DNA from: Chitinophagales bacterium
GTDB taxonomy: Bacteria; Bacteroidota; Bacteroidia; Chitinophagales; JADIYW01
Length of the DNA stretch: 64,000 bases
Assembly (NCBI GenBank): GCA_020636545.1
Contig: JACJXS010000011.1
Coordinates: forward strand, 1,916-65,915
Reading direction: 5' to 3'
The notes below the pieces were generated by a model. That model was not told where the DNA came from, made no database searches, and worked only from the letters and a program-made list of their open reading frames with translations. Numbering within the stretch: position 1 is the stretch's first letter; every line of letters starts with the position of its first letter. Positions 3,495 through 64,000 of the stretch are shown here, in pieces. Position numbers and translations under genes: made by a program.

Positions 3495-3550
3495 TGATTT
3501 TTTTTACAAAGATACCAATTTGTTTTCATTTTTATAAGAGATGTGCATGT

Positions 3551-3697
3551 AGTATTAAGTAGAAAGTATTGAGTAGTGAGAGATGAGAATCAAGATTTTT
3601 AGAGCCAAGAATCAAGACTTTGTTGTTGTAGTAAGTAGTGAGTAGTGAGTAGTAAGTAGAAAGTAGCAAGAAACTAATTATTTCATTAATCACTAAC
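3551..3697. repeat. modular heptamer-repeat element, locus 1 (GAGTAGT-type heptads, CAAGAAT/CAAGACT module, TTCATTA-type heptads)
   Basis: Read directly: agtattaagtagaaagtattgagtagtgagagatgagaatcaagatttttagagccaagaatcaagactttgttgttgtagtaagtagtgagtagtgagtagtaagtag. The same modules recur at 4411, 5747, 9543 and 50297. Confidence 0.85.
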
Positions 3698-3704
3698 CCT
3701 CGCC

Positions 3705-3727
3705 TTTGTTGGTTTGCAACCAACAAA
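3705..3727. repeat. 10-bp-stem palindrome tttgttggtt-tgc-aaccaacaaa
   Basis: Perfect inverted repeat read directly. It is a near twin of the palindrome at 3815-3837. Confidence 0.8.
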
Positions 3728-3806
3728 CTTCTTATTTTTCATTGTGCAATTACTCATCTTCACTTGTTATTAAATATTAAATATTTTAATTTGATATTTA
3801 TTTTTT

Positions 3807-4088
3807 TTAATTTTGTTGTTGGTTACAAACCAACAACGGCAAAGCAATTAAAATATTTTTAGAACTTGTTGTTACGACAACATCTCCAAAGCTTTTTAAT
3901 ATTTCAATATACTCATTTTGATTAATTTCACAATGACCAAATAAATCAATATCAATAGAATTTCTATGTCCAATTTGTAAAGCCAATGCTGTTCCACCCA
4001 CTAAAAAATAATTTTCAAATAATGGCTCTCGCATTATGCTTTTTAGGAGTTCCATAAGTTTTGGAACAACTGTTTGTGTTTGTAACAT
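3807..4088 (-). pseudogene. truncated nucleotidyltransferase AbiEii/AbiGii-family toxin (N-terminal ~82 codons only)
   Basis: The first 82 aa match ORF 4816..5424 exactly. DNA homology ends at ~3844 and the frame then runs into the palindrome. The GGTALAL...DIDLF NTase motif is retained but the C-terminal ~120 aa are missing. Confidence 0.8.
3815..3837. repeat. 10-bp-stem palindrome gttgttggtt-aca-aaccaacaac at the truncation junction of the AbiEii-like fragment
   Basis: Perfect inverted repeat. It encodes the aberrant C-terminus (LPLLVCNQQQN) of the truncated ORF. Confidence 0.8.
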
Positions 4089-4348
4089 CTAAACTCTGTT
4101 TTGTTGATATTAAAAATAGTAGATAAATAGGAAAGTGTAACAGCATCTAAAATTCTTAAATTTAAAGCAACTTCCTTTATCGTTTCTAAACCATATATCT
4201 CTTTTAACAATTTCCAATCTTTCATTAAACCATGCTCTAATACCTTATGTATCAAATGAACTTTATGTTTTTGAAAATCAAAATTAGACAAATCTACATC
4301 CCAAAAAAGATGTGGTGAAAAATCATTAATAGATATTGTCTTCTTCAT
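4043..4348 (-). CDS. small partner protein of the AbiEii-like toxin (putative antitoxin, copy 1)
   Basis: Differs from 5379..5684 at 3 residues within these coordinates. It lies immediately upstream of and overlaps the toxin ORF. ATG at 4348 preferred over the TTG at 4375. Confidence 0.6.
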   Translation of the reverse strand: MKKTISINDFSPHLFWDVDLSNFDFQKHKVHLIHKVLEHGLMKDWKLLKEIYGLETIKEVALNLRILDAVTLSYLSTIFNINKTEFRCYKHKQLFQNLWNS

Positions 4349-4410
4349 ATTAACAAAGTTACCTTTTCTTTTCAAAATTGTAAAACTAATTTATCAATAA
4401 GAACATAATT

Positions 4411-4813
4411 GAGAATCAAGATTTTTAGAGCCAAGAATCAAGACTTTGTTGTTGTAGTAAGTAGTGAGTAATAAGTAGTAAGAAATTACTTCATTATTGC
4501 ATTATTTAATTATTTCATTACTTCATTAACCTTTGTGAACTCCGTGCAAAAACTTAGTGTACTTTGTGGTTAAAAAAATGAGTATTAAGTAGAAAGTATT
4601 AAGTATTGAGAACCAAGATTTATAGAGCCAAGAATCAAGACTTTGTTGTAGTAGTAAGTAGTGAGTAGTGAGTAGTAAGAAATTCATTACTTCATCATTA
4701 CATTATTTAATTATTTCATTATTTCATTAACCTTTGTGAACTCCGTGCAAAAACTTAGTGTACTTTGTGGTTAAATAAAGATGAGATTTTGAGAAATTAA
4801 TTAATTCATTAAT
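4411..4813. repeat. modular heptamer-repeat element, locus 2 (two tandem ~190-bp composite units)
   Basis: Each unit has four parts in order. First gagaaYcaagattt.tagagccaagaatcaagac, then a C-free GTAGT/GAGTAGT heptad block, then a nearly G-free TTCATTA/CTTCATT heptad block. The unit ends in cctttgtgaactccgtgcaaaaacttagtgtactttgtggttaaa. Confidence 0.9.
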
Positions 4814-4815
4814 TT

Positions 4816-5424
4816 TTACAATTTAATGACCTCATCAATGATTTTTTGTTTACACTCTCCCCAATCTAATTCTTGATACATTTTGACATCTAATTGTTCA
4901 TCAGCATCATCGAAATAAGTTAAACTTTTACAAACCAAAAACTCAGAACCATTAGCATATTTTTGATTATAATAATCTAACATTTCCCTTAATGTAAAGT
5001 AGTTCATTAAAAAATATAAGTCAATAAAATCCTTTTTAGAACCACGCCCCGCAATGGCATTAAGCTTCATCGCAGCAATATCAACTTTTGACAACATTCT
5101 TATCCCTTCTATTTCTATTGGAGTATCTAATAATGGATAATTATAATTAACAAAATCTACTTTTACTTCATTGATTTTTGCAATTAAAATATTTTTAGAA
5201 CTTGTTGTTACTACAACATCTCCAAAGCTTTTTAATATTTCAATATACTCATTTTGATTAATTTCACAATGACCAAATAAATCAATATCAATAGAATTTC
5301 TATGTCCTATTTGTAAAGCCAATGCTGTTCCACCCACTAAAAAATAATTTTCAAATAATGGCTCTCGCATTATGCTTTTTAGGAGTTCCATAAGTTTTGG
5401 AACAACTGTTTGTGTTTGTAACAT
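4816..5424 (-). CDS. nucleotidyltransferase AbiEii/AbiGii-family toxin (DUF1814-like), full length
   Basis: 202 aa with pol-beta NTase motif VGGTALALQIGHRNSIDIDLF and a C-terminal KKDFIDLYFL region typical of this family. The start may be an internal Met (5391 or 5370). Confidence 0.75.
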   Translation of the reverse strand: MLQTQTVVPKLMELLKSIMREPLFENYFLVGGTALALQIGHRNSIDIDLFGHCEINQNEYIEILKSFGDVVVTTSSKNILIAKINEVKVDFVNYNYPLLDTPIEIEGIRMLSKVDIAAMKLNAIAGRGSKKDFIDLYFLMNYFTLREMLDYYNQKYANGSEFLVCKSLTYFDDADEQLDVKMYQELDWGECKQKIIDEVIKL

Positions 5425-5684
5425 CTAAACTCTGTTTTGTTGATATTAAAAATAGTAGATAAATAGGAAAGTGTAACAGCATCTAAAGTTCTTAAATTTA
5501 AAGCAACTTCCTTTATCGTTTCTAAACCATATATCTCTTTTAACAAATTCCAATCTTTCATTAAACCATGCTCTAATACCTTATGTATCAAATGAACTTT
5601 ATGTTTTTGAAAATCAAAATTAGACAAATCTACATCCCAAAAAAGATGTGGTGAAAAATCATTAATAGATATTGTCTTATTCAT
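5379..5684 (-). CDS. small partner protein of the AbiEii-like toxin (putative antitoxin, copy 2)
   Basis: ~101 aa, upstream of and overlapping the toxin ORF in typical toxin-antitoxin gene layout. ATG at 5684 preferred over the TTG at 5711. Confidence 0.6.
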   Translation of the reverse strand: MNKTISINDFSPHLFWDVDLSNFDFQKHKVHLIHKVLEHGLMKDWNLLKEIYGLETIKEVALNLRTLDAVTLSYLSTIFNINKTEFRCYKHKQLFQNLWNS

Positions 5685-5746
5685 ACTAACAAAGTTACCT
5701 TTTCTTTTCAAAATTGTAAAACTAATTTATCAATAAGAACATAATT

Positions 5747-6212
5747 GAGAATCAAGATTTTTAGAGCCAAGAATCAAGACTTTGTTGTTGTAGTAAGTAG
5801 TGAGTAATAAGTAGTAAGAAATTACTTCATTATTGCATTATTTAATTATTTCATTACTTCATTAACCTTTGTGAACTCTGTGTAAAAACTTCGTGTGCTT
5901 TGTGGTTAAAAAAATGAGTATTAAGTAGAAAGTATTAAGTATTGAGAACCAAGATTTTTAAAGCCAAGAACCAAGACTTTGTTGTAGTAGTAAGTAGTGA
6001 GTAGTGAGTAGTAAGAAATTACTTCATTATTTAATTACTTCATTATTTCATTATAAAAATCCTGTCCATCATTTAATCATAAAAATCATAGTTCAGACAG
6101 TTTTTTGAGTAGAAAGTATTGAGTATTAAGTAGTGAGAAATTACTTCATTATTTAATTACTTCATTATTGCATTATTTCACTAACCACTAAAAACTAAAA
6201 ACTCACTAAAAA
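5747..6212. repeat. modular heptamer-repeat element, locus 3
   Basis: Same module order as locus 2, plus an ataaaaatcct...ttcagaca terminal module and an ACTAAAA heptad run (6187-6212) abutting the stop of the next gene. Confidence 0.9.
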
Positions 6213-7620
6213 CTACTGTCTTTTAATTCCTGTGCAATAAACTCTTAAATGTCGATCTAAATAGGAATCATTATATACAGATATACTTTTAATAAAAGTA
6301 CCTGCTGGGCAAACACCAAAATTTGTCAAATCATTTTCATCGGAATCTGGATGATTTAAAACACTTTCAATCCCATATCCAGTTTCAACAGTAGTATAGC
6401 CTGATGATAAAGTAGTACACTTAATTGCCAAACCATCATCCAAACGACTAGTAGCATATGCTTGCCAACCTGTTCCAATTGTTCCATCAGGACAAATCGC
6501 ATGATAGTGTTTATTATCTGTGAAATTATAGCGTGGTGCAACATTAGTAGCAGTTGTTCCTGTCCCCTTTGAAGTAGTAACTTGTGTAGCACCAATATCG
6601 TAAGAAGTAGGTCTGTACCACGTAGTGGTAGCAGATAGTAAATTAGATATATCAACGCCTTGAATTTTCATATCACCATCCATGGAGCCAGTTGCGTAAA
6701 CGGAAACCGTAGTAGCGCCATATCCAGCTTCTAATTCAATACTATGCCATGTATTATCACTTGAAGTACTTGGTCCTCTTTTAAAATCTAATTTTCCTGT
6801 TACTAAACCTTGTGTAGCAATAAAATTATGATTTGAAATTGTATTTCCAGATCCAGTTGTGTTTAATACTAAATCTGCATTAGTGTTTTCATTACTTACA
6901 GAAAAGTCATCACTTGACCCGCTGCCAAAACCTGTCCATGCCTTTCTTCCTGCTGCATAGCCTTTAGGATACCATTGTATGTAAGTATGGTCTGTACCTT
7001 CTAAGTTCAAAAGCCCTGCATTGCTTTTTATTAAAGTATTTCCATTAACTTCTAATTTTTGTGTAGGTGCTGTTGTTCCTATCCCTACTCTATCATTATC
7101 TCCATCAACAGAAAAAGTAGTGCCATCAACATTAAACATATTAACACCAGTTCCTGTAAAACTCATTTTATTGGTATTAGTTAAAGCAGAAACAGTTGTT
7201 GGACGCACTAAAGGTCCGCCTAATTCTATGATAAGGGTCAGAAGCACTTGCATTGGGACCTGTAATTGAAATATTTGCACCATTTTGTGCTTTTACAGAG
7301 TTTACCATTCTCACCCATTTTGTACCATCCCAATAATAATAACCAGGCGATACATTATTTGGTGCAGTACCAGCAGTGGCAGTATTATAAACCAATAATG
7401 AGGTTGCAGGAGAGACTACAGGAGCGGCAGAATTTGTGGCAGTAAGTGCTACATTCGGTATTAACAATCCCTTTTTATCTGCTGCAGGATCACTTGCAGT
7501 ACTGATTTCTAATTTTGCCGAATTATCAGGTGAATTTGTGCCAATTCCTACATTGCCTTGTGCTATTGAATTAGTAAAAAAAATAAATAGCATTACTGTA
7601 AAAGCGTAAATCTTTTTCAT
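6213..7620 (-). pseudogene. secreted VGIGT-motif protein split by a frameshift near 7240 (or a sequencing error)
   Basis: ORF 7177..7620 carries the signal peptide and the NVGIGTNSPDNSAKLEI motif. ORF 6213..7283 continues in another frame with RVGIGTTAPTQKLEV. The two overlap by 107 nt and read-through works with a 1-nt indel around gacccttatc. Confidence 0.55.
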
Positions 7621-7703
7621 ATTATTTTCATTTTAAGTTTATTGTTTTAATTTATGGTATATCTATTAAATAATAAATGCCTTAAAGTAGGTCATCTAAT
7701 TAA

Positions 7704-9463
7704 TTATTTCACAGTTACTTTTTTAGTAAATACATTTTGGTCATTTTTGAAAGTGATTAAGTAATTACCACTTGCTATATTTTTCAAATCTAATTCTAAT
7801 TTATTATTACCACCTTTCAATTCATATTGTTTTGAATTATTCATATTCTGTCCAATGGCATTATATAATTCAGTTTTCAAATAAGCATCTTGGGAAGTAT
7901 AAACATCAAAATAGGAAGTTCCATTAGAAGGATTAGGATATATTTCTGAAATTGTAAAATTAGAATTTGGAATTAACTTCGCTTTTACAATCGGACTATA
8001 TTTAAACTTATTATCAAAATCTATTTGTTTTAATCTATATAAATAGGTAATGCCACCAAAAACATTGCGGTCATCGTAAGTATAAATATTTTCCGTAATA
8101 GCATTTCCAGCACCAGCTACAAAATCTAATTTATCAAAAGTCATTCCATCAAGTGAACGTTGAACCTCAAAACCGGCATTATTAATTTCTGATGCTGTAA
8201 CCCATTTCACTTGAATATATTCATTATTAATTGGTTTTGCATCAATACTCAATAATTCAATAGGTAGAGTTGTATTAGAATTATTAGAAGTTCCATGTAT
8301 TCTAAAACTAGAAAATGAATTTTGGTTACTTAGTGAAATATCTGTAGCTTTAGTTGTAGAAGCTATTCCACAATAACCATATCCTGTAAGATGTGCAAAC
8401 GGAAAAGGACTAAACGGACCAGAAACCCCATCGCCTCCAGGTACACCATTTTTAGCAACTATACGTAAATATTTACTTCCATAGGGTGTATTGCATGCAT
8501 TTGGCACTTGAATATAATTTGCAGTTTCTAATTTGCTTCCAGGATGTAAGTTAATAGTATAATTATAACCAGTACTAGCTCCTGCTGGCGTTACCACCCA
8601 TTCGTGTGATAAATCATAAGAACTTTCCAAAGTGTACATATCTAAAACTCCGTCAGGTCCACCTATACAATCAGGAATAGGATCTGGAGAATTTGGCACT
8701 TTGTCAGTACCTACATCACAAAACACAAAACGATGAATAGGTGCAGTAGTTGCCGGCTTAATATATCCTAATATGCTTGTTGTGCTGGAATAGTTGCTAA
8801 ATTCAAATCAAATGCTTCCATACCATCTAATGAACTAGGCTCAACGCCAATTGGAAAATAAAAATAACCCGTATTGATTTGTCTTCTTAATTTACCTTCT
8901 ATATATTTTACTGTTGCACCATTTCCAGTACTATAGCCAGTAAATTTAGCCGTTGATGGATTTTGTAAAAACAATTCGTAAGCATAAGCACTTCCATCAT
9001 TTCCATGAGAAATTGCATCAGTACGGAGAATACCACCAGTACTAGAAAACGCAAAACTACCTGAACCATTTACATTAACATTTGTATTCAAAGCGACAAC
9101 ACCAGCACTTTTATTAATATCCATATCATAAAATTGATTTTGGTTAGATGCTGTGCCATTCCAAGTACCCTTAATTAGATGATTAGAAGTTCCAACAAAA
9201 CGCTCAATTCCAGTGGAAGTATAATGATTGGAAGATGGAGTATTAGTCCAATCACCAGTAATTTCAATTAAACTTGTAGTATTGGTAAACGCTCCATCAT
9301 TGTTGATAATTTCTCCGTTTACATAGAGCGTTGGAACAGTAGCATTAATTTTATCATTCAATTTTACAATAGCTCCATTGATATAAAACTCATTTGCTGC
9401 AAAACTTGTATGTAAAAACAAACAAGAAAGCAAGAAGATTAAAGGTTTGTAAAGTTTTTTCAT
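7704..9463 (-). pseudogene. T9SS-secreted protein split by a frameshift near 8765-8810 (or a sequencing error)
   Basis: The upstream ORF (8768..9463) has a signal peptide but no sorting domain. The downstream ORF (7704..8726) has a T9SS C-terminal sorting domain (IYPNPSNGTSYFDV...KKVTVK) but no signal peptide. The downstream frame is open upstream to ~8810. Confidence 0.6.
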
Positions 9464-9542
9464 AACAATTAATTAAATTATGAGCTAAATATAATTAATT
9501 ATTTTGATAAGTGTCAAATAAATTTCAAAAAAATTATTATTT

Positions 9543-10047
9543 GAGAGATGAGATTTGAGAATCAAGAGCCAAGACTTTATTGTAGTATTAAGTAGTGAGT
9601 ATTAAGTATTGAGAAATTAATTCATTCATTACTACATTATTTAATTATTTCATTATAAAAATCCTACCAATCCCAAAATCCTATAAATCCTGATTCAGAC
9701 AATTAATTTGAGTAGAAAGTAGTGAGTAGTGAGAAATTCATTACTACATTACTTTATTATTACATTACTTCATTAATTCATTATAAAAATCCTGCCAATC
9801 CCAAAATCCTATAAATCCTGATTCAGACAATTAATTTGAGTAGAAAGTTGTGAGTAGTGAGTAGTGAGAAATTAATTATTTCATTACTACATTAATCTTT
9901 GTGAACTCTGTGTAAAAACTTTGTGTACTTTGTGGTTAAAAAAATGAGTATTAAGTATTAAGTATTGAGAAATTCATGATTACATTACTTTATTATTACA
10001 TTACTTCATTATTTAATTATTTCATTATAAAAATCCTGATTCAGACA
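9543..10047. repeat. modular heptamer-repeat element, locus 4 (includes a 128-bp tandem unit)
   Basis: cattataaaaatcctRccaatcccaaaatcctataaatcctgattcagacaattaatttgagtagaaagt recurs at 9651 and 9779. A deleted variant (aaaaatcctgattcagaca) lies at ~10024. One ctttgtgaactctgtgtaaaaactttgtgtactttgtggttaaa module lies at ~9897. Confidence 0.9.
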
Positions 10048-10308
10048 AAAAAAACACCTACTTATAGGTTATCCACTATATTTACATTGTTATTCACAAT
10101 ATATGTGCATAATAATCAGTAGGGTGTACAAAAACATAATCTTAAAAAATAGCAAAATTGTATGATTTAATGTAATTTTGAATATATTATTAAATACATT
10201 TATTATTCTTTATAACTTAGATTTATGAATATATTCTACACTGTTTTTGATATTCCCAAAACACACATAATGAGCCAACGCAAGCGCCTAGTCAACAAAT
10301 GTTCAGCC

Positions 10309-13300
10309 ATGCTAAAAAATTATGTAATTTATACAAGCTTAGTTTTGTGTTTTTTTATAAGTGGTAATACTTTTGGGCAAAACAAATACAAACTAATTAC
10401 TTCAACATCTGACTTAGTTGCAGGAGATAAGTATATAATTTCTTCAGCACAATCAGATACTTCCGCACAAGTTTTAGGGTATCAAAATACAAATAATAGA
10501 CCACAAGTTACAACTACTGGTGGAGCACCATTTACTGTATCTAGCAGTATAATCACACTCTCTCCAGCAACTGCTAACACTAATACAAATAATCCTTATG
10601 AAATTACGATAGAACAAGGTTCTGATGCAACACACTATTATTTAAAAGACCCTTTACAAACCAACTCATATCTTGTGCCTGCAACAGGAAGCAATAATAA
10701 TAATAATTTAAAAGGTAAAACAGCCCCAGGAGTTAGCGATTGGACTATAACTTTCTCAAGCAATGCTGCGGTTATAACTAATACAGGAGATCCTAATACA
10801 AACGGAAGAAATATCCTAAGATATAATTCAGGTTCTAGTTTATTCAGTTGCTATTCCACTGGACAAGCCGCTGTATATTTATTTCGTAAAGTATTTACAA
10901 TTACCTACGACGGCAATGGTAGTGATGGAGGAACTGTACCAACAGATGCTAGTAGTCCTTATTTTTCTGGCTCTACTGTAACTGTTTTAGGTGCAGGTAC
11001 AATGACAAAAACAGGCAATACTTTTGCCGGATGGGATAGCGACAATGACGGTACTGCAAATTTTACAGGTTCTGGTAGCAAAACATTTAGTATTTCTGCT
11101 AATACTACATTAAAAGCGGTATGGACGCCTAGTGGTTGCACTACACAAACTATAAATCCTATTGCATCATCCGTTACTAAAACGTATGGGGATGTTGCTT
11201 ATAGCGTTGCTACTACTGCTACTTCTAGTTTAACAGTTACCTACTCCAGCAGCAATACAAGTGTGGCTACAGTAGATGCAAGTGGTAACGTAACAATAGT
11301 AGGTGCTGGTACTGCTACCATTACTGCGGCTCAAGCTGGTAATAGTTCATACTGTGCTGCAACATCGCTTACACAGGCATTAACTGTAAATAAAAAAAAC
11401 TTAACAATTACTGGGCTTACTGCCAACGATAAACTATATGACGGAACTACAACGACTACTCTAAATGGTACAGCAACATTAAATGGGGTATTAGCAGGCG
11501 ATGCATCCAATGTTAGCCTTGGCGGAGCTCCTAGTGTCAATTTTAACGATGCAACAATGGCATGCTCTAAGACTGTTACTGTTTCCGGTTACACTATTTC
11601 TGGTTCTGCATCGAGTAATTATTCGCTAACGCAACCATCAGGCTTTACGGCCTGTATAAATGGGATAAGCACTAATAACTCAACTACATTAGGGCCATTT
11701 TGTAATTTTACCAGTAATACTATTGCATTGCCCTACACTGTGGTCGGTTCATTTGCAGGTCAGTATGATATACAAATTTCAAATAGTTCAGGTACTTTCC
11801 CTACAAATGCAACAACACAACTATTAACCTATGTATCCAACTCTGGAGGTATAGTAACAGCTACCTTGCCAGCATCTTATACCACAGGTACAAAATATAG
11901 AGTTAGGGTTGTAAACAGCTCTCCCGCTTTTTATTTATCGGGGAATAATGGCAGCGATTTTACCATTACAGCTGTAGCCACCCCAACGCTAAGTATCACA
12001 TCTTCTCCTGCAGCGGTAGCTGGTACTACTACCATTTGTAGTGGCACGAATGTTACGTTTACAGCCACACCTGCTAGTGTAGGTGGTGGTACAGTATCTT
12101 ATCAATGGAAACTGAATGGCACTAACGTTGGAACAAATAGCAATTCATATAGCAACAATACATTGGCAACTGGCAATACCATAACTTGCGACATTACCAT
12201 AACTGGCGGTTGTGTTACAGCCACCTCTGCCAGCAGCAATACCATTACTATGGCGGTAAATACAACACCCACAAATGACTTGTGTAGCAATGCCGTGGGC
12301 TTAACCGCAAATGCCGCTGCAGTAGGTGGTACAATGACACCATGTGCAGGATTTGAAACGCCTTTCAGTGGTAGTAAAAAAGATGTTTGGTATAAATTTG
12401 TTGCACCTTGTACTGCCGATTATACCATTATCCTTACGGGTTTTACAGGTGATATGGATATGGCATTATTTTACAATAGCAATAGTTGCCCATCATCTAC
12501 TACTACAATAGCAAGCTCAACGACAAGCACTTCCACCGAAACAATAACCCAAGCACTTACGAGTGGCAATACATATTACATTCGTGTTTATGCATTTAAT
12601 ACTACAGCAGAATCGTCAAGTTTCACTATACAGGCTACAGGTATTACTTCCGTTCCAGCACAACCCGACCCAATAGTGGGCGAAACTTCTGTGTGTCCTG
12701 GCTCAAGCCAAACATATACGACCAATCCCGTTGCCGATGCCACCAGCTATACATGGTCAATACCTTCCGGCTGGAATATTACTGCAGGTGCAGGTACTAC
12801 TTCTATTACTGTAACTACTGGCATCAGTGGCGGTACGGTTTCTGTTACCGCCGACAACGGTTGCGGCAGTAGCACCGCCAGAAACTTAGCTGTGAGTATG
12901 TTGGCAATACCTTCTACCCCAACGGCTACGGCAGGTACTGCCATTACGGGTGCTTCTTTTACGGCAAACTGGAACAGCGTTGGTGGCATTACAGACTATA
13001 GTGTAGATGTATATACCTATAGTGCCAATCAAAATATGGCGGTATGGACATTTCCAACAAGTGGTGCAACTACTACCGCAGATATTTATAATGCTAATAA
13101 TAATGGAAAAACAATTACACGACAAGGTGGTGGATCGATAACGGATGTTTCAGGTGCAACCACAAAAGCTGCGAATGGTAATGGTGGCTGGGATGGTGGT
13201 AGTGGCTCTAAATACTGGCAAATAATAATTGACGCTACGGATAGTAAAAATCTTACCTTATCTTCTAAACAATATTCTTCAAATACAGGTCCGAGGGATT

Positions 13301-23351: not shown

Positions 23352-23425
23352 GGTTCGGTAGTTCAGTTGGTTAGAATACATGCCTGTCACGCATGGGGTC
23401 GCGGGTTCGAGTCCCGTCCGGACCG
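23352..23425 (+). tRNA. tRNA-Asp (anticodon GTC)
   Basis: Folded by hand. Acceptor ggttcgg/ccggacc with one G-U pair, D-arm agttcagttggttagaat, anticodon loop ctGTCac, T-arm ggttcgagtcc, discriminator G. CCA is not encoded. Confidence 0.9.
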
Positions 23426-23426
23426 C

Positions 23427-23767: not shown

Positions 23768-23821
23768 TACATGCCTGTCATCTCGCCTAAGGCGAGACGG
23801 ATTCGAGTCCCGTCCGGACCG
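23768..23821 (+). pseudogene. partial tRNA-Asp copy (anticodon-stem/loop fragment plus T-arm and 3' acceptor strand)
   Basis: tacatgcctgtca matches 23377-23389. ttcgagtcccgtccggaccg matches 23406-23425. The intervening 17 nt are replaced by a 21-nt stretch, most of which forms a hairpin (tctcgcc-taa-ggcgaga). There is no 5' acceptor or D-arm. Confidence 0.85.
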
Positions 23822-23822
23822 C

Positions 23823-23856
23823 AAAAAAAGTCCTCAAATTTTTGAGGACTTTTTTT
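23823..23856. terminator. second, identical copy of the tRNA terminator hairpin
   Basis: A 59-bp block (23802-23860) is identical to 23406-23464 and includes this hairpin. Confidence 0.8.
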
Positions 23857-23915
23857 ATTTAAATTACTCTATGGAATTCCTACTAAATTTGAGCCTAAAA
23901 ATGTCCATTAAGACT

Positions 23916-49696: not shown

Positions 49697-50227
49697 TTAT
49701 GCTCCGCCTGTTCCTTTAAAATAATCATCTTTATATTTAAACAAAACATTGAACGTCGTTAATGAACCATAAATTCTAGTAATATATTGTTGTAATTCAA
49801 CTTTCTCTGCATCAGTCAATTTACTAGCATTGATTTTTTGTTCCATCACTCGCAATCTATCTCTTGTCATCACAATTTTATGGAAGAAAGATTCTAGGTC
49901 AATTTCTTTATCTTGCAAAGATGTATCAGCCGATTGAATGATTAATTTTCCTCCTTGATATCTATCGGCAATTTTACAATCCTCAATGGGTTCAATTAAA
50001 GGCTTTATCATTTGATAGATGGTCTTCTCTACTTCGTCTAATGAAATACCTGAATTGTCTTTTTCTACTAACTTAATAACCAACATTCCATCAAAGGCTT
50101 TTGAAATTTCCTTTTCACCGTGTTCCGAAAAATAAATATTATATAAATATTCATCTTCATTGTCAATAATTACACCTTTTCCAAAAGTGGGATGTTCTAA
50201 CTTTGTTCCTATATTATAATTTGTCAT
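49697..50227 (-). CDS. hypothetical protein with N-terminal Tudor/DUF3553-like motif and helical C-terminal half
   Basis: ATG at 50227 (MTNYNIGTKLEHPTFGKGVIID...) preferred. The track's N-terminal extension runs through repeat-element sequence (50297-50345). Confidence 0.5.
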   Translation of the reverse strand: MTNYNIGTKLEHPTFGKGVIIDNEDEYLYNIYFSEHGEKEISKAFDGMLVIKLVEKDNSGISLDEVEKTIYQMIKPLIEPIEDCKIADRYQGGKLIIQSADTSLQDKEIDLESFFHKIVMTRDRLRVMEQKINASKLTDAEKVELQQYITRIYGSLTTFNVLFKYKDDYFKGTGGA

Positions 50228-50296
50228 ATTTATATTTTTGGACGAAAATAAGGAAAAACAAGCAAGTAATGAATTTTTAAGAGATATTGTATTATA

Positions 50297-50358
50297 GAGT
50301 AGAGATTTTTTGCAGATGTGAGTAGTGAGAGATGAGATTTCGAGCAATTAAGTATTTT
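50297..50358. repeat. modular heptamer-repeat element fragment, locus 5
   Basis: gagtagagatttttt...gtgagtagtgagagatgagattt matches the modules at 3575 and 9543. Confidence 0.7.
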
Positions 50359-50388
50359 AATAATAAAACAATTAAATATTTTTTTTTT

Positions 50389-50466
50389 CGCATTGGTTCG
50401 TGTCTTCACGAAACATAATAAATTATATATTAAAAAATGTGGCTTGTGAAAACACAAACCACTGCG
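50389..50466. repeat. ~78-bp double-hairpin palindromic element, copy 1
   Basis: cgcattggTTCGTGtcttCACGAAacataataaattatatattaaaaaatgtggcTTGTGaaaaCACAAaccactgcg. The outer 20-nt arms are inverted repeats of each other, and each arm also folds on itself. Confidence 0.85.
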
Positions 50467-50473
50467 TAATTTT

Positions 50474-50491
50474 TAGATTTTAGAAAATCTA
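50474..50491. repeat. 8-bp-stem palindrome tagatttt-ag-aaaatcta
   Basis: Read directly, between copies 1 and 2 of the double-hairpin element. Confidence 0.6.
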
Positions 50492-50550
50492 AATCCAAAC
50501 AAGAAGATATTGATAATTAATAAAACAGATTAAGAATGGATATTATTTCT

Positions 50551-50629
50551 CCGAATTATTTCGTGTCCTATCGAAACATAATAAATTATATATTAAAAAA
50601 TATGGTTTGTGAAGACACAAACCATTGCC
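50551..50629. repeat. ~78-bp double-hairpin palindromic element, copy 2 (left arm degenerate)
   Basis: ccgaattatttcgtgtcctatcgaaacataataaattatatattaaaaaatatggTTTGTGaagaCACAAAccattgcc, 73 bp from the 3' end of the ATPase gene. Confidence 0.8.
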
Positions 50630-50701
50630 TTAATTTTCTATTCAAAAACAAATACAAACCATTATCTTAATAAAAAAATATACTATGGTTATAGAATGGC
50701 T

Positions 50702-51907
50702 TTAATATAAAAAACCAAACAACCACAATGGTATTTTTTTACCTCTTGCATTTTCAATATCATCTAAAGCTAGAAGGTAATTGTTCTCATTTTTCACTTG
50801 ATCTATCGTCTTTGATTGACCACCAACTTCAATCACTAAATCATATTCTTCAATATAAAAATCACCAACCTTAGGCATTTTAATCGTAAGCCCAGCATTA
50901 GAAAGTTGAGACATCAGAAAAACTTCTCTAACTGTACCTATATTAGGCTGTGAGCTTAAAGCATAACACCAATTACTGTTCTCTAAAAATATTTTATCAG
51001 GTTTTTGAAGAGTAGAAACACCTCTACCTTGTGCAATCAACAAGCTTAAAATATTTGCTTTTTCTAAAAGCACTAACCAATGATAGATGGTCTCCCTACT
51101 CACATCTAATTTTCGTGCAAGTGCAGATATATTAGGCTTAAAAGGTGTAGATTCAGCAATTACACCTAATAATTTTTTTAGTTTAAAAGTAGTTTTCACA
51201 TCAAAACCTTCCATTGCAGCCAAATCAGTTTCTATAATCGTATTGATAATTTGGTTCAATTTCTTCAAGGTAGTATGTTCATTATTTTGAGCTGAGAATG
51301 GAAAATATCCCGTTTTAAGATAATTTCTAAATGTTGGTAGCGGATGTTGTATCTTTTCTATAATTGATTGAGTAATATTATACGCATCTGCTTGAATATC
51401 ACTAATTTTTATTGATGACATGCCTGAAATAAAGCCTGATATTTCAAGGTATTCCCTATATGACAAGCCCTGCATATTATAACTTATCAAACGCCTGCTC
51501 AAATCTGCTTCACCTTTATAAATGTCAAGAATAGAGGATGATGTAAAAACAATTTTCATTTCAGGAAATCCATCATAAATATTTTTAATTTCTCTTGACC
51601 AATTGGGATATTTATGTACTTCGTCTATAAATAAAAAGCGACCACCATTCTTATAAAATATATCAGCAGTTTGCACCAAATTATGTGTATAGAACCAATA
51701 ATGATCAGCCGTGATATAAAGAGAGGTTTCAGGTTGTTTTAAAATATACTTCATATACTGCAACATCAATGTCGTTTTTCCAACTCCACGCGAACCTTTT
51801 ATGGCAATCAAACGCTCACTCCAATCAATCTCTTGCATTAAATACCGAAAGTAATTTGATGTGGTATTTTGTAGTAAATTGTCGTTGAATTCATACAATT
51901 CTATCAT
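50702..51907 (-). CDS. AAA+ ATPase with C-terminal DUF4143-like region (COG1373-type)
   Basis: Walker A GSRGVGKTTL, Walker B LFIDEVH, and a C-terminal winged-helix-like part. ATG at 51907 preferred over the TTG at 51931. Confidence 0.75.
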   Translation of the reverse strand: MIELYEFNDNLLQNTTSNYFRYLMQEIDWSERLIAIKGSRGVGKTTLMLQYMKYILKQPETSLYITADHYWFYTHNLVQTADIFYKNGGRFLFIDEVHKYPNWSREIKNIYDGFPEMKIVFTSSSILDIYKGEADLSRRLISYNMQGLSYREYLEISGFISGMSSIKISDIQADAYNITQSIIEKIQHPLPTFRNYLKTGYFPFSAQNNEHTTLKKLNQIINTIIETDLAAMEGFDVKTTFKLKKLLGVIAESTPFKPNISALARKLDVSRETIYHWLVLLEKANILSLLIAQGRGVSTLQKPDKIFLENSNWCYALSSQPNIGTVREVFLMSQLSNAGLTIKMPKVGDFYIEEYDLVIEVGGQSKTIDQVKNENNYLLALDDIENARGKKIPLWLFGFLY

Positions 51908-52016
51908 AATATTGTCGTTTATATTCAACAAAATTAATAAATATTGTCGATATTAATCAACAATTTATCTATTTTCCATCTGTTTGTAACTTAATCTGAT
52001 GCTTTCTCACCTATTC

Positions 52017-52095
52017 CGCATTGGTTCGTGTCTTCACGAAACATAATAAGTTATATATTATAAAAATGTGGTTTGTGAAGACACAAACCACTGCC
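52017..52095. repeat. ~78-bp double-hairpin palindromic element, copy 3
   Basis: cgcattggTTCGTGtcttCACGAAacataataagttatatattataaaaatgtggTTTGTGaagaCACAAAccactgcc, upstream of the ATPase gene start. It is followed by ttagaatcaagact, a heptamer-family module. Confidence 0.85.
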
Positions 52096-52112
52096 TTAGA
52101 ATCAAGACTTTT

Positions 52113-52120
52113 CTTCTATT
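52113..52120 (+). promoter_or_regulatory. TAnnTTTG -7 box (tatttttg) upstream of the icmF 5' fragment
   Basis: Consensus match 76 nt before the fragment ATG. The equivalent box (tatatttg) lies at 55652-55659 before full-length icmF. Confidence 0.4.
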
Positions 52121-52195
52121 CATATTTTTGAGTAAGAATAGGAAATTTAGCCTATCTGAATTCATTTTTTTCAGGATATTCATTATTTTTACAAT

Positions 52196-52504
52196 ATGCA
52201 AAATCCGACATCCTATCAACCTAAAAACAAAATAAGAATTGTATCAGCGGCATCGTTATTTGATGGTCATGATGTTGCTATCAATATTATGCGTAGAATA
52301 ATGCAAGCTTCAGGTGCCGAAGTGATACATTTGGGACATAATCGAAGTGTCAAAGAGATTGTGGACTGTGCTATTCAAGAAGATGCCAACGCCATTGCTA
52401 TTACTTCTTACCAAGGTGGGCATGTACGTTTTTTAAAGTATATGTATGATTTGCTAAAAGAAAACAACAGTAATCAAATAAAAATTGCCTTGCAACGGTC
52501 TTAA
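52196..52504 (+). pseudogene. 5' fragment of an icmF allele (first 97 codons, partial B12-binding domain)
   Basis: 92 of 97 residues are identical to the N-terminus of 55729..59127. Homology stops at 52487, before the GGGG motif, and 5 unrelated codons and a stop follow. Confidence 0.85.
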
Positions 52505-55534: not shown

Positions 55535-55578
55535 AAAGAATTAGAGAGTATTTTTAATAGCCTACAACAATAACACCT

Positions 55579-55620
55579 AAACTGCTTTAGCCAAAATATT
55601 TTGGCTAAAGCAGTTTTTCT
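55579..55620 (+). terminator. strong rho-independent terminator
   Basis: aaactgctttagccaaaat/attttggctaaagcagttt forms a stem of about 19 bp, followed by a T-run. Confidence 0.85.
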
Positions 55621-55651
55621 TTTGCTCTGTTATCCTACAAAATAAACTGTT

Positions 55652-55659: not shown

Positions 55660-55728
55660 TATAATGGAAAATAAGGATTTTAAACTATCTAAATTCATTT
55701 TTTAAAGTATATTACTTAATTTTACAAT

Positions 55729-58700
55729 ATGCAAAATCCGACACCATATCAGCCTAAAAACAAAATTAGAATAGTAACCGCAGCTTCTCTTTTTGACGGT
55801 CATGATGTTGCTATCAATATTATGCGTAGAATTATGCAGTCTTCGGGTGCTGAAGTGATACATCTTGGACACAATCGAAGTGTAAAAGAGATTGTGGACT
55901 GTGCCATTCAAGAAGATGCAAATGCTATTGCTATTACATCTTATCAAGGTGGTCATGTTCGCTTCTTGAAATATATGTATGATTTGTTGCAAGAGCAAAA
56001 TAGCAATCAAATTAAAATTGTTGGCGGTGGTGGAGGAACTATTTTACCATCAGAAATTGAAGAATTAGAACAATATGGCATAGATAAAATTTATTCGCCA
56101 GATGATGGTCGTGAAATGGGTTTGCAAGGTATGATAAATGAAGTATTAGAAATTGCAGATTTCGCGACAGGAAAAGATATTAGTTTGGATACTGAATTAT
56201 TAAAACAAAAAAATACCAAACAAATTGCACAACTAATTTCTTGTGCTGAAAATTTCCCTAAGGAATTTGAAAAAACAGCAGCTCAAATCTCATCTCTCAC
56301 TGCTCACAATCAAACTCCAATTCTCGGAATTACTGGAACTGGCGGTGCTGGAAAGTCATCTCTAACCGATGAGATAGTACGCAGATTTTTATTAGATTTT
56401 CCAGATAAAACCGTAGCGATTATTTCCATTGACCCATCACGAAGAAAAACTGGAGGAGCCTTATTGGGCGATAGAATCCGAATGAATAGTATCAATAATG
56501 AACGTGTTTTTATGCGTTCGATGGCAACTCGTCAAACCAATGCTTCTATTTCTAAAGATGTTCAAGATGCTATCCAGATTTTAAAAGCTGCTGCTTATGA
56601 TTTAATCATTGTTGAAACTTCTGGAATTGGGCAGAGTGGTACTGAAATTATTGATATTGCTGATGTTTTCTTATATGTGATGACACCTGAATTTGGAGCT
56701 GCTTCACAATTGGAAAAAATTGATATGTTGGATTATGCAGATATTGTTGCTATCAATAAATTTGATAAGCGAGGAGCTCAAGATGCTTTAAGAGATGTCA
56801 AAAAACAGTACCAACGCAATAGAAACCTATGGGATAAAAATCCTGATGAAATGCCTGTTTTTGGTAGTATTGCAGCCCAATTTAATGATCCAGGAACTAA
56901 TGAACTATATCTAAATCTAATTCAAACAATCATTACGAAGACAAAAGTAGATTGGCGTAGTCAATTAAATTTAAAAACTGGAAATTCTGAAAAAATCTAT
57001 ATTATTCCACCAAACAGAACACGCTATTTATCTGAAATTGTAAAGACAAATAAAGATTATGATGTTTGGGTCAATGAACAAGCTGAAATTGCAAACGCAC
57101 TTTATGCTTTGGATAGAGTTCAGTCTATTGTTCAGAGTTCACAGTCCAATAAGAACCAAGAATCAAGAACCAAGAACCAAGAACTATTACCGATTGACCA
57201 ATTAAGGAATGAACAACAACAAAAACTGCATCATGATTGTAAACAAATTTTAGACAATTGGACAGAGAAAGTTCAATCTTATAAAAATAAAGAGTTTGTA
57301 TTTAAAGTTCGTGATAAAGAAATAAAAATTAAAACACATACCACTTCATTATCGCATCAAGAAATACCAAAAGTGGCACTTCCAAAATACACAGCTTGGG
57401 GTGATATTTTGAAATGGAATTTGCAAGAAAATGTACCAGGTAGTTTTCCATATACTGCTGGTGTCTTTCCTTTCAAAAGAGAAAATGAAGATCCTACAAG
57501 AATGTTTGCTGGAGAAGGTGGTCCTGAAAGAACCAATAAACGTTTTCATTATGTGTCTTTAGGTTTGCCTGCAAAAAGGTTATCAACTGCGTTTGATAGT
57601 GTTACTTTATATGGCAACAATCCAGATTTACGACCTGATATTTATGGAAAAATCGGTAATTCAGGCGTTTCAATTTGTACGCTAGATGATGCTAAAAAAC
57701 TGTATTCTGGATTTGATTTATGCAGTCCGACAACATCAGTTTCTATGACGATTAATGGACCAGCACCAACAATTTGTGCATTTTTTATGAATGCTGCAAT
57801 CGACCAACAATGTGAAAAGTATATCAAGGAAAATAATTTAACTACAATAGTAGAACAAAAGATTGATGCAATTTATAAAGCAAAAAATGTCACTCGTCCT
57901 TGTTATTATGGAAAATTACCTGAAGGTAATGACGGTTTAGGTTTGATGCTTTTAGGCGTTACAGGCGACCAAGTTTTAGAAAAAGATATTTATGAAAAAA
58001 TAAAAAAATATACACTTTCTCAAGTTCGAGGAACTGTCCAAGCTGATATTTTAAAAGAAGATCAAGCACAAAACACTTGTATCTTTTCTACAGAGTTTTC
58101 ATTAAAATTGATGGGTGATGTACAAAGCTATTTTGTAGAAAATAAAGTACGTAATTTTTATTCTGTTTCAATTTCTGGTTATCATATTGCCGAAGCTGGA
58201 GCGAACCCAATATCTCAGCTGGCATTTACATTAGCCAATGGCTTTACATTTGTAGAATATTATTTATCCAGAGGAATGCATATCGATGATTTTGCACCAA
58301 ACTTATCGTTCTTTTTCTCCAATGGTATAGACCCAGAGTATGCTGTAATAGGTCGTGTTGCTCGAAAAATATGGGCAAAAGCAATGAAATATTTGTACAA
58401 AGGCGATGAAAGAAGTCAGAAATTAAAATATCATGTACAAACATCTGGAAGAAGCTTACACGCTCAAGAAATAAGTTTTAATGATATTCGTACAACATTG
58501 CAAGCATTGTATGCTATTTATGATAACTGCAATTCCTTACATACCAATGCTTATGATGAAGCAATTACCACACCAACCGAAGAAAGTGTGCGTAGAGCAA
58601 TGGCAATTCAATTAATTATCAATAAAGAATTAGGGTTGGCAAAAAATGAAAATCCTTTACAAGGTTCTTTTATTATTGAAGAATTGACTGATTTGGTAGA

Positions 58701-62970: not shown

Positions 62971-64000
62971 ATGAATTTGAAGCCTTTTTTATTTTTTATA
63001 TTTGTTATATATTTTGTTTTTTTGAATGGTGCTGAAAATGGCTACAAATATTGGAAGAAAGCCAATCAACTATTTGAACAAAAGAAATATCAAGAAGCTT
63101 TAATTTATTATGATAAGATAGATAAAAGTATTGACATCTTAGATGTAAAAATTAATTCAGCTCGTTGCTTTTATTTCTTAGAAAAATTTTCTGAAGCAGA
63201 AAATGCCTATCAAAAAATTATAGAAATACCTAATATCAATTTAGATGTTTATAAAGAATATGCCAATATTTTAATCAAAAATGGTAAAGCTAATGAAGCA
63301 AAAATATGGGATAAAAAATATATTGAGGAAAACATAAAACAACAAAAATTTATTACCGAAATTCCTGCTAAACCAACTAAAGAAATTAGTAACAAGACTA
63401 AAGAAGTAAGTAATAAGAATGATAAGAAGCAAAAGGATACTACAGCTAAGACAATTAAAACGCCTAAAGTCAAACCTATTAAGGATACTGTAAAGATTGA
63501 AAAGCCTAAAGAAATTAGTAATAAGACAAAAGTAGTAAGTGATAAGAAAGATAAGGAGCAAAAGGATACTACAGCTAAGACAATTAAAACGCCTAAAGTC
63601 AAACCTATTAAGGATACTATAAAGATTGAAAAGCCTAAAGAAATTAGTAATAAGACAAAAGTAGTAAGTAATAAGAAAGATAAGGAGCAAAAGGATACTA
63701 CAGCTAAGACAATTAAAACGCCTAAAGTCAAACCTATTAAGGATACTGTAAAGATTGAAAAGCCTAAAGAAATTAGTAACAAGACTAAAGAAGTAAGTAA
63801 TAAGAATGATAAGAAGCAAAAGGATACTACAGCTAAGACAATTAAAACGCCTAAAGTCAAACCTATTAAGGATACTATAAAGATTGAAAAGCCTAAAGAA
63901 ATTAGTAACAAGACTAAAGAAGTAAGTGACAAGAAAGATAAGGAGCAAAAGGATACTACAGCTAAGACAATTAAAACGCCTAAAGTCAAACCTATTAAGG
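62971..64000 (+). CDS. secreted/membrane-anchored protein with TPR-like N-terminal region and Lys-rich 43-aa tandem repeats, 3'-truncated by window edge
   Basis: Hand translation from the ATG at 62971 stays open to the window end: MNLKPFLFFIFVIYFVFLNGAENGYKYWKKANQLFEQKKYQEALIYYDK...KEISNKTKEVSNKNDKKQKDTTAKTIKTPKVKPIKDTVKIEKP repeated. It is absent from the ORF track because it has no stop inside the window. Confidence 0.75.
   Translation, partial: MNLKPFLFFIFVIYFVFLNGAENGYKYWKKANQLFEQKKYQEALIYYDKIDKSIDILDVKINSARCFYFLEKFSEAENAYQKIIEIPNINLDVYKEYANILIKNGKANEAKIWDKKYIEENIKQQKFITEIPAKPTKEISNKTKEVSNKNDKKQKDTTAKTIKTPKVKPIKDTVKIEKPKEISNKTKVVSDKKDKEQKDTTAKTIKTPKVKPIKDTIKIEKPKEISNKTKVVSNKKDKEQKDTTAKTIKTPKVKPIKDTVKIEKPKEISNKTKEVSNKNDKKQKDTTAKTIKTPKVKPIKDTIKIEKPKEISNKTKEVSDKKDKEQKDTTAKTIKTPKVKPIK
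63379..64000 (+). repeat. 129-bp tandem repeat, at least 4.8 copies, in frame
   Basis: Unit starts at 63379, 63508, 63637, 63766 and 63895. The units differ only at a few positions, which occur in mosaic combinations. Confidence 0.95.

Follow-up and report, generated by a model that had tools for sequence, protein, structure and literature searches.

The stretch of DNA examined here (the window, 64 kb long; all coordinates are relative to its start) lies on contig JACJXS010000011.1 of a Chitinophagales bacterium, an AT-rich (31% GC) member of the Bacteroidota from activated sludge. Between acnB and icmF it carries three copies of a palindromic element of about 78 bp, two of which, copies 2 and 3, bracket a gene for an AAA+ ATPase. 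What is this element, and what has it to do with the ATPase? The setting is that of an ordinary chromosome: a Pfam scan of 46 ORFs (open reading frames) of the window returned truB, ffh, lptD, rpoD, acnB, icmF and accC, and zero matches to integrase, recombinase or transposase families.

The three copies share one orientation and all are intergenic. Copy 1 (50389–50466, plus strand) is a doublet of what we identify below as a repetitive extragenic palindromic sequence (REP): GCATTGGTTCGTG-TCTT-CACGAAACA, an AT-rich spacer and the inverted REP GGCTTGTG-AAAA-CACAAACCACTGC. In copy 2 (50551–50628, plus strand) the left REP is degenerate (TTCGTGTCCTATCGAA), with three mismatches and a broken stem, and the right REP is intact (ATGGTTTGTG-AAGA-CACAAACCAT, with a TGCC foot). 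Copy 3 (52017–52095, plus strand), between the 5′ region of the ATPase gene and a truncated fragment of icmF, is the best-preserved doublet. Both halves of the element occur at exactly three sites in the 64 kb at up to three mismatches, as against 0.00 expected from 100 dinucleotide-preserving shuffles, and a relaxed hairpin pattern revealed zero extra copies in the window. The mean column identity of the three aligned copies is 87%.

The arms of the element are one unit of about 26 nt, GC[C/A]-N-TGGTTYGTG-TCTT-CACRAACCA, in inverted orientation; five arms in the window are intact and one is degenerate. In copy 3 the two arms (52018–52043 and 52069–52094, 26 nt each) are 85% complementary, and the outer 20 nt, read from the sequence, pair at 18 of 20 positions. 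Each arm also folds by itself, through stems such as TGGTTCGTG/CACGAAACA and the perfect 10-bp ATGGTTTGTG/CACAAACCAT of copy 2. The folding z-scores range from −4.7 to −7.9 against shuffles. The predicted fold is either a pair of short hairpins or a single long one, according to the strand and to whether DNA or RNA parameters are used; copies 1 and 3 are predicted to form one long hairpin when the minus strand, or RNA, is folded. The 84-bp gap between copies 1 and 2 (50467–50550) holds a perfect 10-bp palindrome, TTTAGATTTT-ag-AAAATCTAAA (50472–50481/50484–50493), which is unrelated to the REP sequence, and no credible ORF, the only candidate being a 75-aa TTG ORF that clips copy 1. An earlier note on this DNA, made from the letters alone, had described three copies at these positions, inverted outer arms matching at 18 of 20, the two alternative folds, the bracketed ATPase gene, and a gap with a palindrome and no gene. 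The observation itself is confirmed in all these respects.

The right REPs of all three copies score as terminator-like on the minus strand, that of the ATPase gene and of a gene for a 216-aa protein, and on that strand each is followed by ATTTTT(T). Four terminator-like sites were found in the scanned region against 0.9 expected. The site in copy 2 comprises 50625–50602 of the minus strand plus ATTTTTT, and the right REP of this copy is spaced 73 nt past the ATPase stop codon. Rfam searches, of the whole window at gathering thresholds and of 50200–52300 at permissive E-values, gave only chance matches of the miRNA or snoRNA type, far below threshold.

The ATPase gene (50702–51907, minus strand) encodes 401 aa from an ATG at 51907, with the Pfam domains AAA_14 (97 bits) and DUF4143 (26 bits); its nearest named relative belongs to a Chitinophagales MAG (metagenome-assembled genome). 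DUF4143 is counted among the PD-(D/E)XK families (PMC3424549). The protein matches the PADLOC profile PDC-S01 (PDLC04787) over residues 22–372 (102.4 bits, E 6e-30); PDC-S01, a candidate defence system of one gene in which an AAA+ ATPase is fused to a PD-(D/E)XK domain, is very common and lacks experimental validation (PMC12988326). By this match the gene is a PDC-S01-type candidate defence gene. Directly upstream of its start codon lie two operator-like palindromes, TTGTYGA-N6-TCRACAA (51912–51931 and 51944–51963), a pattern that occurs three times in the window, 0.04 sites being expected. Similar operator-like repeats precede the ATPase homologues at the loci L127, L144 and L153, which suggests a conserved, perhaps autoregulatory control of PDC-S01-like genes.

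The REP hairpin and its neighbours in other Bacteroidota

Does the hairpin occur beyond the window? We scanned one genome per species with the 16-mer TGGTTYGTGTCTTCAC as seed and obtained at least 120 loci; the counts in this section are those among the 120 matches listed. By our own arithmetic chance would yield about 550 occurrences in 596 Gb of a 16-mer with one two-fold position; the seed count alone is therefore uninformative, and it is the content of the matches that tells. The six nucleotides beyond the seed complete the palindrome (up to two mismatches) in 94 of the 100 loci that are Bacteroidota or unassigned. Outside the Bacteroidota two of 20 loci complete it (up to one mismatch), both of them MAG contigs. 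Conservation outside the seed covers the GCC upstream (0.67, 0.88 and 0.82) and RAACCA downstream. The variable stem pair covaries, with C..G 69 times, T..A 29 times, T..G six times and other pairs three times; the stem is kept by compensatory C–G/T–A changes. The loop is strand-specific, TCYY. The REP of the window has a GCC-N foot, a stem of 8–9 bp (TGGTTYGTG/CACRAACCA) and a strand-specific TCTT loop.

The 120 listed loci contain 187 hairpin units, of which only 24 lie inside long ORFs, though such ORFs cover 75% of the sequence. Units are arranged singly, in tandem or inverted, with tandem and inverted arrays in L031, L048, L098 and L108. Forward-then-inverted pairs with gaps of 4–16 nt are the commonest arrangement: 22 forward-then-inverted pairs no more than 120 nt apart were found in the other genomes, and in 15 of the 22 the gap is at most 16 nt. 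The hosts among the matches listed are Chitinophagales, Sphingobacteriales (Pedobacter), Cytophagales and, rarely, Flavobacterium. Many of the hairpins in other genomes are without any T-run. Arrays of half REP units with a 24-nt period (GCCTTGGTTCGTGTCTTCACTCAC repeated), an arrangement not seen in the window, stand at L031 3312–3423 and L108 93–237.

Which genes lie beside the hairpin? We clustered all the ORFs lying up to 1.5 kb from any hairpin in the 120 listed loci. The sole family recurring in more than three loci is a protein of about 185 aa, present whole or as a fragment in nine of the 120 and carrying the motifs MPNHVHFIW (the HUH motif), FWQRD and YIHNNP in most members. Inverted hairpins, their GCC feet turned outward, stand on both sides of the gene in L009 and L114. 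At L101 the gene has a cluster of five hairpins next to it; one of these has an unbroken 26 nt (ATGGTTTGTGAAGACACAAACCATTGC) in common with the right REP of copy 2, and another matches the GCATTGGTTCGTG type of left arm. Full-length members have 184–186 aa. L009 and L049 have NHVH, FWQRD and YIHNNP, L101 has NHIH and YIHTNP (one residue off YIH[QN]NP), and L114 has an incomplete Tyr motif (LDYNNP). Against the NCBIfam model REP_Tyr_transpos (NF047646, cut-off 80) the L009 protein scores 87.1 bits and passes, and the L101 protein, at 69.3 bits, falls below; against Pfam Y1_Tnp the score is 27 bits for a cut-off of 23. The sole match in the PDB is 4ER8, the TnpA-REP of E. coli, in an alignment that takes in both the HUH and the Tyr motif. 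More than 1,600 proteins belong to the family, many of them named ‘REP element-mobilizing transposase RayT’ by JGI; we refer to them as RAYTs (REP-associated tyrosine transposases).

A comparative survey of such proteins (Quentin et al. 2018, PMC6006769) defines a TnpA-REP subclass 2.6, equal to Bertels group 5, with the motifs NH[LIV]H, WQ and YIH[QN]NP and a mean length of about 179 aa. Its members are mostly from Bacteroidetes, and on the flanks of their genes lie ‘atypical secondary structures’ that lack GT[AG]G and have copies elsewhere in the genome (PMC6006769). The table of that survey contains a similar REP of Cytophaga hutchinsonii, GTGGTCTGTG..CACAGACCA, given as GGTGGTCTGTGTGCCACAGACCATAGT, and one of similar build from Flavobacterium indicum, GCTCCCCCGCGAATCCTTTCGCGTGG, as well as REPs starting with GCT or GCC. 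Our exact consensus, GCCNTGGTTCGTGTCTTCACGAACCA, appears neither in its supplementary table nor in the searchable full text of the literature. The genes of about 185 aa beside our hairpin fit subclass 2.6 by motifs, not by phylogeny. The earlier note had suggested a REP-like element recognised as a single strand, and this holds: the arms are hairpins of the REP kind that is seen beside RAYT (Y1/HUH) genes in other Bacteroidota, and two of them in inverted orientation make up the 78-bp unit. The element itself is of an ordinary, already explained kind, in a less-studied phylum.

Variation of the acnB–icmF interval and of the ATPase module

How does the locus vary within the natural population? 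We used Logan contigs from wastewater and activated-sludge metagenome runs, with their contig depths as a rough measure of copy number (runs X1, X2, X3, X25 and X43). In X1 the REP arms have a depth of 520–700×, against 55–70× for neighbouring single-copy contigs and about 240× for core genes of the species. The arms are thus 8–10 times as deep as the neighbouring contigs and about 2–3 times as deep as the core genes, which suggests that near-identical arms are few per genome, roughly ten or fewer. A good share of them would sit at the acnB–icmF locus. A RAYT-like contig of 1,146 nt, with depths of 93.6 in X1, 14.8 in X3, 6.8 in X2 and 4.2 in X25, roughly tracks the window organism across these four runs; it was not matched to the 120 listed RAYT homologues. 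This contig is the only hint of a cognate RAYT, which would be encoded elsewhere in the source genome.

A minor strain carries a full additional element at 55619–55635, between the terminator of a gene for a 184-aa protein (55578–55616) and icmF. Its depth is about 14, against about 66, and the joints 55619→50382 and 50436→55635 occur at matching depth. A 755-nt contig spans the whole extra element, with the sequence of 55590–55619 as its upstream flank. The same pair of joints was considered as a circle junction plus a deletion of a 5.2-kb island, and is better explained by one contig with an extra element. Some strains are without 50458–50596; there a 12-nt linker (CCACTGC, then A or G, then TAGT) connects copy 1 with copy 2's half element (joint 50457→50597). 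These differences between strains may be gains or losses; both are possible.

Beside copy 3 the promoter and 5′ end of icmF are duplicated: 52137–52436 (plus strand) matches 55670–55969 at 85%. The duplicate encodes a truncated B12-binding ORF of 102 aa (52196–52504), the intact IcmF-like gene encoding 1,132 aa, and between the two lie an XRE regulator, a Fib_succ_major lipoprotein of 610 aa and the 184-aa gene. It looks like an insertion, or an import from a diverged strain. Its position beside copy 3 is further evidence that the acnB–icmF interval is a rearrangement hotspot. The earlier note had named a locus fixed and syntenic across relatives as a finding that would speak against it; the locus is variable, strains differing in the flanks of the ATPase module and in an extra element. 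We conclude that the acnB–icmF locus is a REP-rich, strain-variable hotspot, the joints of which are marked by the REP cluster.

The ATPase gene is part of a module of 1,410 bp (50597–52006, minus strand) comprising one REP/terminator, the gene and its operator/promoter, which recurs between differing flanks in several metagenomes. The identical ATPase protein is encoded by six Logan contigs, which come from different wastewater runs; these contigs, L121–L126, match the window over exactly 50597–52006 at 99.9–100% and then diverge. X1 holds a contig of exactly 1410 nt that equals the module, and its depth there (121) is about the sum of the two contexts (66 + 50). Downstream the module has two forms of flank: that of the window (the spacer of copy 2 with its degenerate arm) and that of L121 and L122 (ATAGT together with a full element and a ClpP-like gene). 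Upstream there are again two: TCACCTATTC followed by copy 3 in the window, L122 and L123, as against an unrelated sequence, CCCTTGGCTGTTGC..., in L124, L125 and X43, and this second context has no REP within 172 nt. The downstream edge of the module falls 5 nt past the hairpin foot, and its upstream edge, at 52006, falls 10 nt outside copy 3. A joint 50634→52012 at first resembled an empty site without the ATPase; this was rejected, the contig of the second downstream context (ClpP-like gene, full element, ATAGT and half element) fitting two copies. Neither an empty site nor a circle junction of the module was found among the population contigs, and JGI metagenome contigs gave no near-identical copy of the ATPase, the best being at 71%.

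Are REPs the companions of this ATPase elsewhere? It has more than 7,900 homologues. The closest genomic one, L127 (85% at the nucleotide level), shares only 50700–51964 with the window, lies between unrelated genes and has zero REPs in 21 kb. Homologues at 69–71% aa identity (L128–L130) have no REPs, nor have those in Niabella (next to JetD) or in Cyclobacterium and Pleomorphovibrio (next to Uma2 genes). In all, the association was negative at L127–L143, L147, L148, L150–L152 and L154–L157, and 0 of the 120 listed REP-seeded loci contain an ATPase homologue. In Niabella hirudinis (L154, 904–3335) the homologue immediately follows a DUF3322/JetD_C (Wadjet-type) gene, and such a defence-island setting agrees with the PDC-S01 match.

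The association was positive in a single orthologous group, the Algoriphagus-type loci L144, L145, L146, L149 and L153. Here a related REP, GCCCATGTGAGTG-TCCT-CACTCACAT, directly follows the ATPase orthologue, ahead of a common downstream gene (Tex in L153); it is single in L146 and an inverted doublet in L144, L145, L149 and L153. REPs stand on both sides of the ATPase in L153 (9600–9720 and 11200–11350) and in L146 (about 3600–3830 and 5130–5360). In L146 they are contained in direct repeats of about 200 bp, one on each side of the ATPase, with a conserved CCCGAACAATTTTGTTCGCTTTCGGGCGAAG motif. These loci have almost no other REP-like hairpins in about 21 kb. Because they have the downstream neighbour in common, they count as one, at most two, independent events. 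Their recurrence is a lead, not evidence of a functional link.

Do these observations make of the ATPase gene and its hairpin or hairpins a mobile cassette, excised and re-inserted by a RAYT, or by another single-strand recombinase, with REPs as its ends? The earlier note had raised the possibility of a hairpin-bounded cassette, and some points speak for it. The module, 99.9–100% identical across at least six runs, occurs in several combinations of its two downstream and two upstream flanks. In elements of the IS200/IS605 type such as IS608, the right-end cut would be expected shortly after the hairpin foot, and it is there, 5 nt past the foot, that the downstream edge of the module lies. The Algoriphagus-type lineage, with a related REP after or on both sides of the orthologous ATPase and with the direct repeats of L146, points the same way. 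Other points speak against it. The shared module has one REP and not two, its upstream edge is 10 nt beyond copy 3, and one of its upstream contexts is REP-free within 172 nt. There is neither an empty site nor a circle junction, the apparent skip 50634→52012 being the second-context contig. Most homologues, including L127, L128–L130 and those of Niabella, Cyclobacterium and Pleomorphovibrio, are without REPs, as the REP-seeded loci are without the ATPase. Even the Algoriphagus-type ATPase keeps the same downstream gene, which suggests a stable gene with REPs in convergent intergenic space. The REPs here are most likely not the ends of a dedicated ATPase transposon. No sign of RAYT-driven movement was found at this locus; the mobile cassette is weakly supported at best, and we regard it as an unlikely explanation.

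A broader proposal fares slightly better, and we still hold it to be rather unlikely: that REP doublets of subclass 2.6 serve as portable joints at which single defence genes are captured and shuffled, a PDC-S01-type ATPase with its REP terminator being moved by single-strand recombination, RAYT-catalysed or REP-templated. If true, it would explain both the near-100% identical 1.41-kb module with different flanks and the REPs that hug the orthologous ATPase in an unrelated lineage, the Algoriphagus type.

Other repeats and scars are present in the window. A second, unrelated family at 3500–10050 (for example 4454–4529 and 9709–9784) consists of at least 12 copies of long purine- or pyrimidine-rich imperfect palindromes of 8-nt units (..AGTAGTGAGTAGTAAG...TTACTTCATTATT..). 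These bracket a duplicated module of DUF6922 and an AbiEii toxin–antitoxin (3844–4143 equals 5180–5479 at 99%). A 75% copy at 50317–50364 abuts copy 1 of the REP doublet, and another stands at the left end of L121. A 98-nt repeat with CCTTTGTGAACTCCGTGCAAAAACTTAGTGTACTTTGTGGTTAAA has four copies (4506–4603, 4707–4804, 5842–5939 and 9872–9969), and similar ‘...CTCAGCGTACTTTGTGGTTAAA’ tails adjoin the REPs of Algoriphagus-type ATPase loci (L149, about 11320–11360; L153, about 11360–11400). The last ~24 nt of tRNA-Asp and its terminator hairpin (23352–23426) are repeated 396 bp downstream (23798–23860) at 98% identity, which resembles an att scar left by an integrated element that is very small or has been lost. 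From 63377 to 64000, and running off the end of the window, there is a lysine- and AT-rich tandem array with a 129-bp period (at least 4.8 copies, 96% identity) that overlaps long minus-strand ORFs.

Mechanism, alternatives and known systems

How, then, are the element and the ATPase best explained? With considerable confidence we take the 78-bp element to be a REPIN/BIME-like inverted doublet (REPIN, REP doublet forming a hairpin; BIME, bacterial interspersed mosaic element) of a REP of about 26 nt, of the REP–RAYT kind already known from Bacteroidota, and the ATPase to be a candidate defence gene in a variable hotspot, where the REPs most likely either travel as passengers or serve as substrates of recombination. 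A RAYT encoded elsewhere in the genome would bind the folded, single-stranded hairpin, the foot and the loop being the probable determinants of specificity. The E. coli TnpA-REP cleaves and rejoins DNA next to the hairpin in vitro. By analogy the RAYT would nick and rejoin beside the hairpins of our locus, and its action may occasionally copy, delete or recombine REP doublets. The right REP with its ATTTTT(T) probably ends transcription on the minus strand, and copy 2 would do so for the ATPase mRNA. Clusters of REPs may favour rearrangements that swap accessory or defence genes.

Several points weigh against this explanation. Cleavage, transposition and termination at the window elements are inferred steps. 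No RAYT gene was found in the 64-kb window by tblastn with RAYT and IS200-like queries. The canonical 5′ tetranucleotide GT[AG]G is absent from the hairpin foot, where the consensus is GCC-N; this sets the element apart from canonical REPs, though not from those of subclass 2.6. The depths suggest a low copy number, roughly ten or fewer per genome, unlike the hundreds of classical REPIN populations. The RNA-type libraries are too sparse to place transcript 3′ ends at the hairpins. Finally, Logan contigs are paths through an assembly graph, and joints within repeated 31-mers carry some risk of chimerism.

Might the elements instead be bidirectional terminators or regulatory palindromes that arose by local duplication, with no mobility and no dedicated enzyme? 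All three right REPs have T-runs and, on the strand that encodes the ATPase and the 216-aa protein, resemble intrinsic terminators; there are only three copies in 64 kb, all within 1.7 kb, and the copy number in the genome is low. However, the 26-nt hairpin with its unpaired GCC foot and TCTT loop recurs in several Bacteroidota orders, often without a T-run, it forms tandem and inverted arrays (L031, L048, L098 and L108), and it brackets RAYT genes. Moreover, copy 3 lies in a divergent promoter region with no obvious use for a terminator, and the strain polymorphism adds a whole element at another site. We therefore think this account very improbable as a replacement for the REP–RAYT one. A passage of PMC3733652 has it that proteobacterial REPs can also act as terminators, and by analogy a terminator role and REP identity may well coexist.

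Might the element be a miniature inverted-repeat transposable element (MITE), derived from an insertion sequence (IS) of the DDE type and mobilised in trans through 20-nt terminal inverted repeats? Its 78 bp, terminal repeats matching at 18 of 20, AT-rich centre and insertion polymorphism in the population all agree with a MITE. Yet none of the three copies has a target-site duplication, each supposed terminal repeat is itself an autonomous hairpin that elsewhere also occurs singly and in tandem, and no DDE transposase recurs in the 120 listed loci, whereas the Y1/HUH gene does. A MITE is extremely unlikely. Least credible of all, and close to negligible, are integron attC sites, or a CALIN-like cluster (cluster of attC sites lacking integron-integrases), with the ATPase as gene cassette: the copies are imperfect palindromes within the 60–140-nt range, foldable as single strands, of one orientation and with a single gene between two of them, but there are no RYYYAAC/GTTRRRY cores, none of the 46 scanned ORFs matches the integron-type recombinase for which the earlier note had advised a search, the gene has its own operator/promoter, the module edges do not fall within a core site, and the arms are self-folding REPs that elsewhere flank Y1/HUH genes.

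What does the REP–RAYT explanation add to present knowledge? REPs and RAYTs have been studied in depth in Proteobacteria; for Bacteroidota there is just one comparative survey, in which the repeats are called ‘atypical secondary structures’. The present locus gives a clean consensus, GCC-N-TGGTTYGTG-TCTT-CACRAACCA, tied to a defined RAYT family. In it a Bacteroidota REP forms REPIN-like doublets and differs between strains of a natural activated-sludge population. It also illustrates how a cluster of REPs can mark a strain-variable hotspot that contains a candidate defence gene, and if REPs do help to move such genes, this would have a bearing on how defence islands assemble.

The nearest well-known relatives are the proteobacterial REP/BIME/REPIN sequences and their RAYTs (E. 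coli YafM, PDB 4ER8; the REPINs of Pseudomonas fluorescens). Like these, the element is a short, extragenic, imperfect palindrome that occurs singly, in tandem or as inverted doublets forming a long hairpin; copies flank a single HUH/Y1 gene (the REPtron), the stem shows compensatory changes, and terminator-like tails often stand at the 3′ ends of genes. Unlike proteobacterial REPs, that of the window is without the 5′ GT[AG]G, has a GCC-N foot and a TCTT loop, and resides in a Bacteroidota host. It also has, as the depths suggest, about ten or fewer copies instead of hundreds, and its consensus is common to several orders. Proteobacterial REPs are usually species- or genus-specific. If one REP consensus is indeed shared across several Bacteroidota orders, this would be unusual and would imply either a very slowly evolving RAYT–REP recognition code or frequent horizontal spread.

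Subclass 2.6 (PMC6006769) resembles our system in the motifs of the neighbouring protein, in its length (184–186 aa against a mean of 179), in phylum and in REPs without GTAG; the doublet with a 25–30-nt AT-rich spacer and the population polymorphism are not described there. With IS200/IS605 elements (IS608, ISDra2) the system shares the Y1 HUH superfamily, which recognises folded hairpins, and a module that ends a few nucleotides 3′ of a hairpin. It differs from them in that the ATPase, and no transposase, stands between the hairpins, in that the module has no second hairpin, and in that there is no conserved target tetranucleotide. Integron attC sites and cassettes are likewise imperfect palindromes, recombined as folded single strands and bracketing single genes; unlike them, our element has no core sites and self-folding arms, the window is without IntI, and the gene has its own promoter. 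The ATPase, for its part, resembles PDC-S01 in profile match, in its AAA_14 plus DUF4143 architecture and in having homologues in variable contexts, with JetD and Uma2 among their neighbours.

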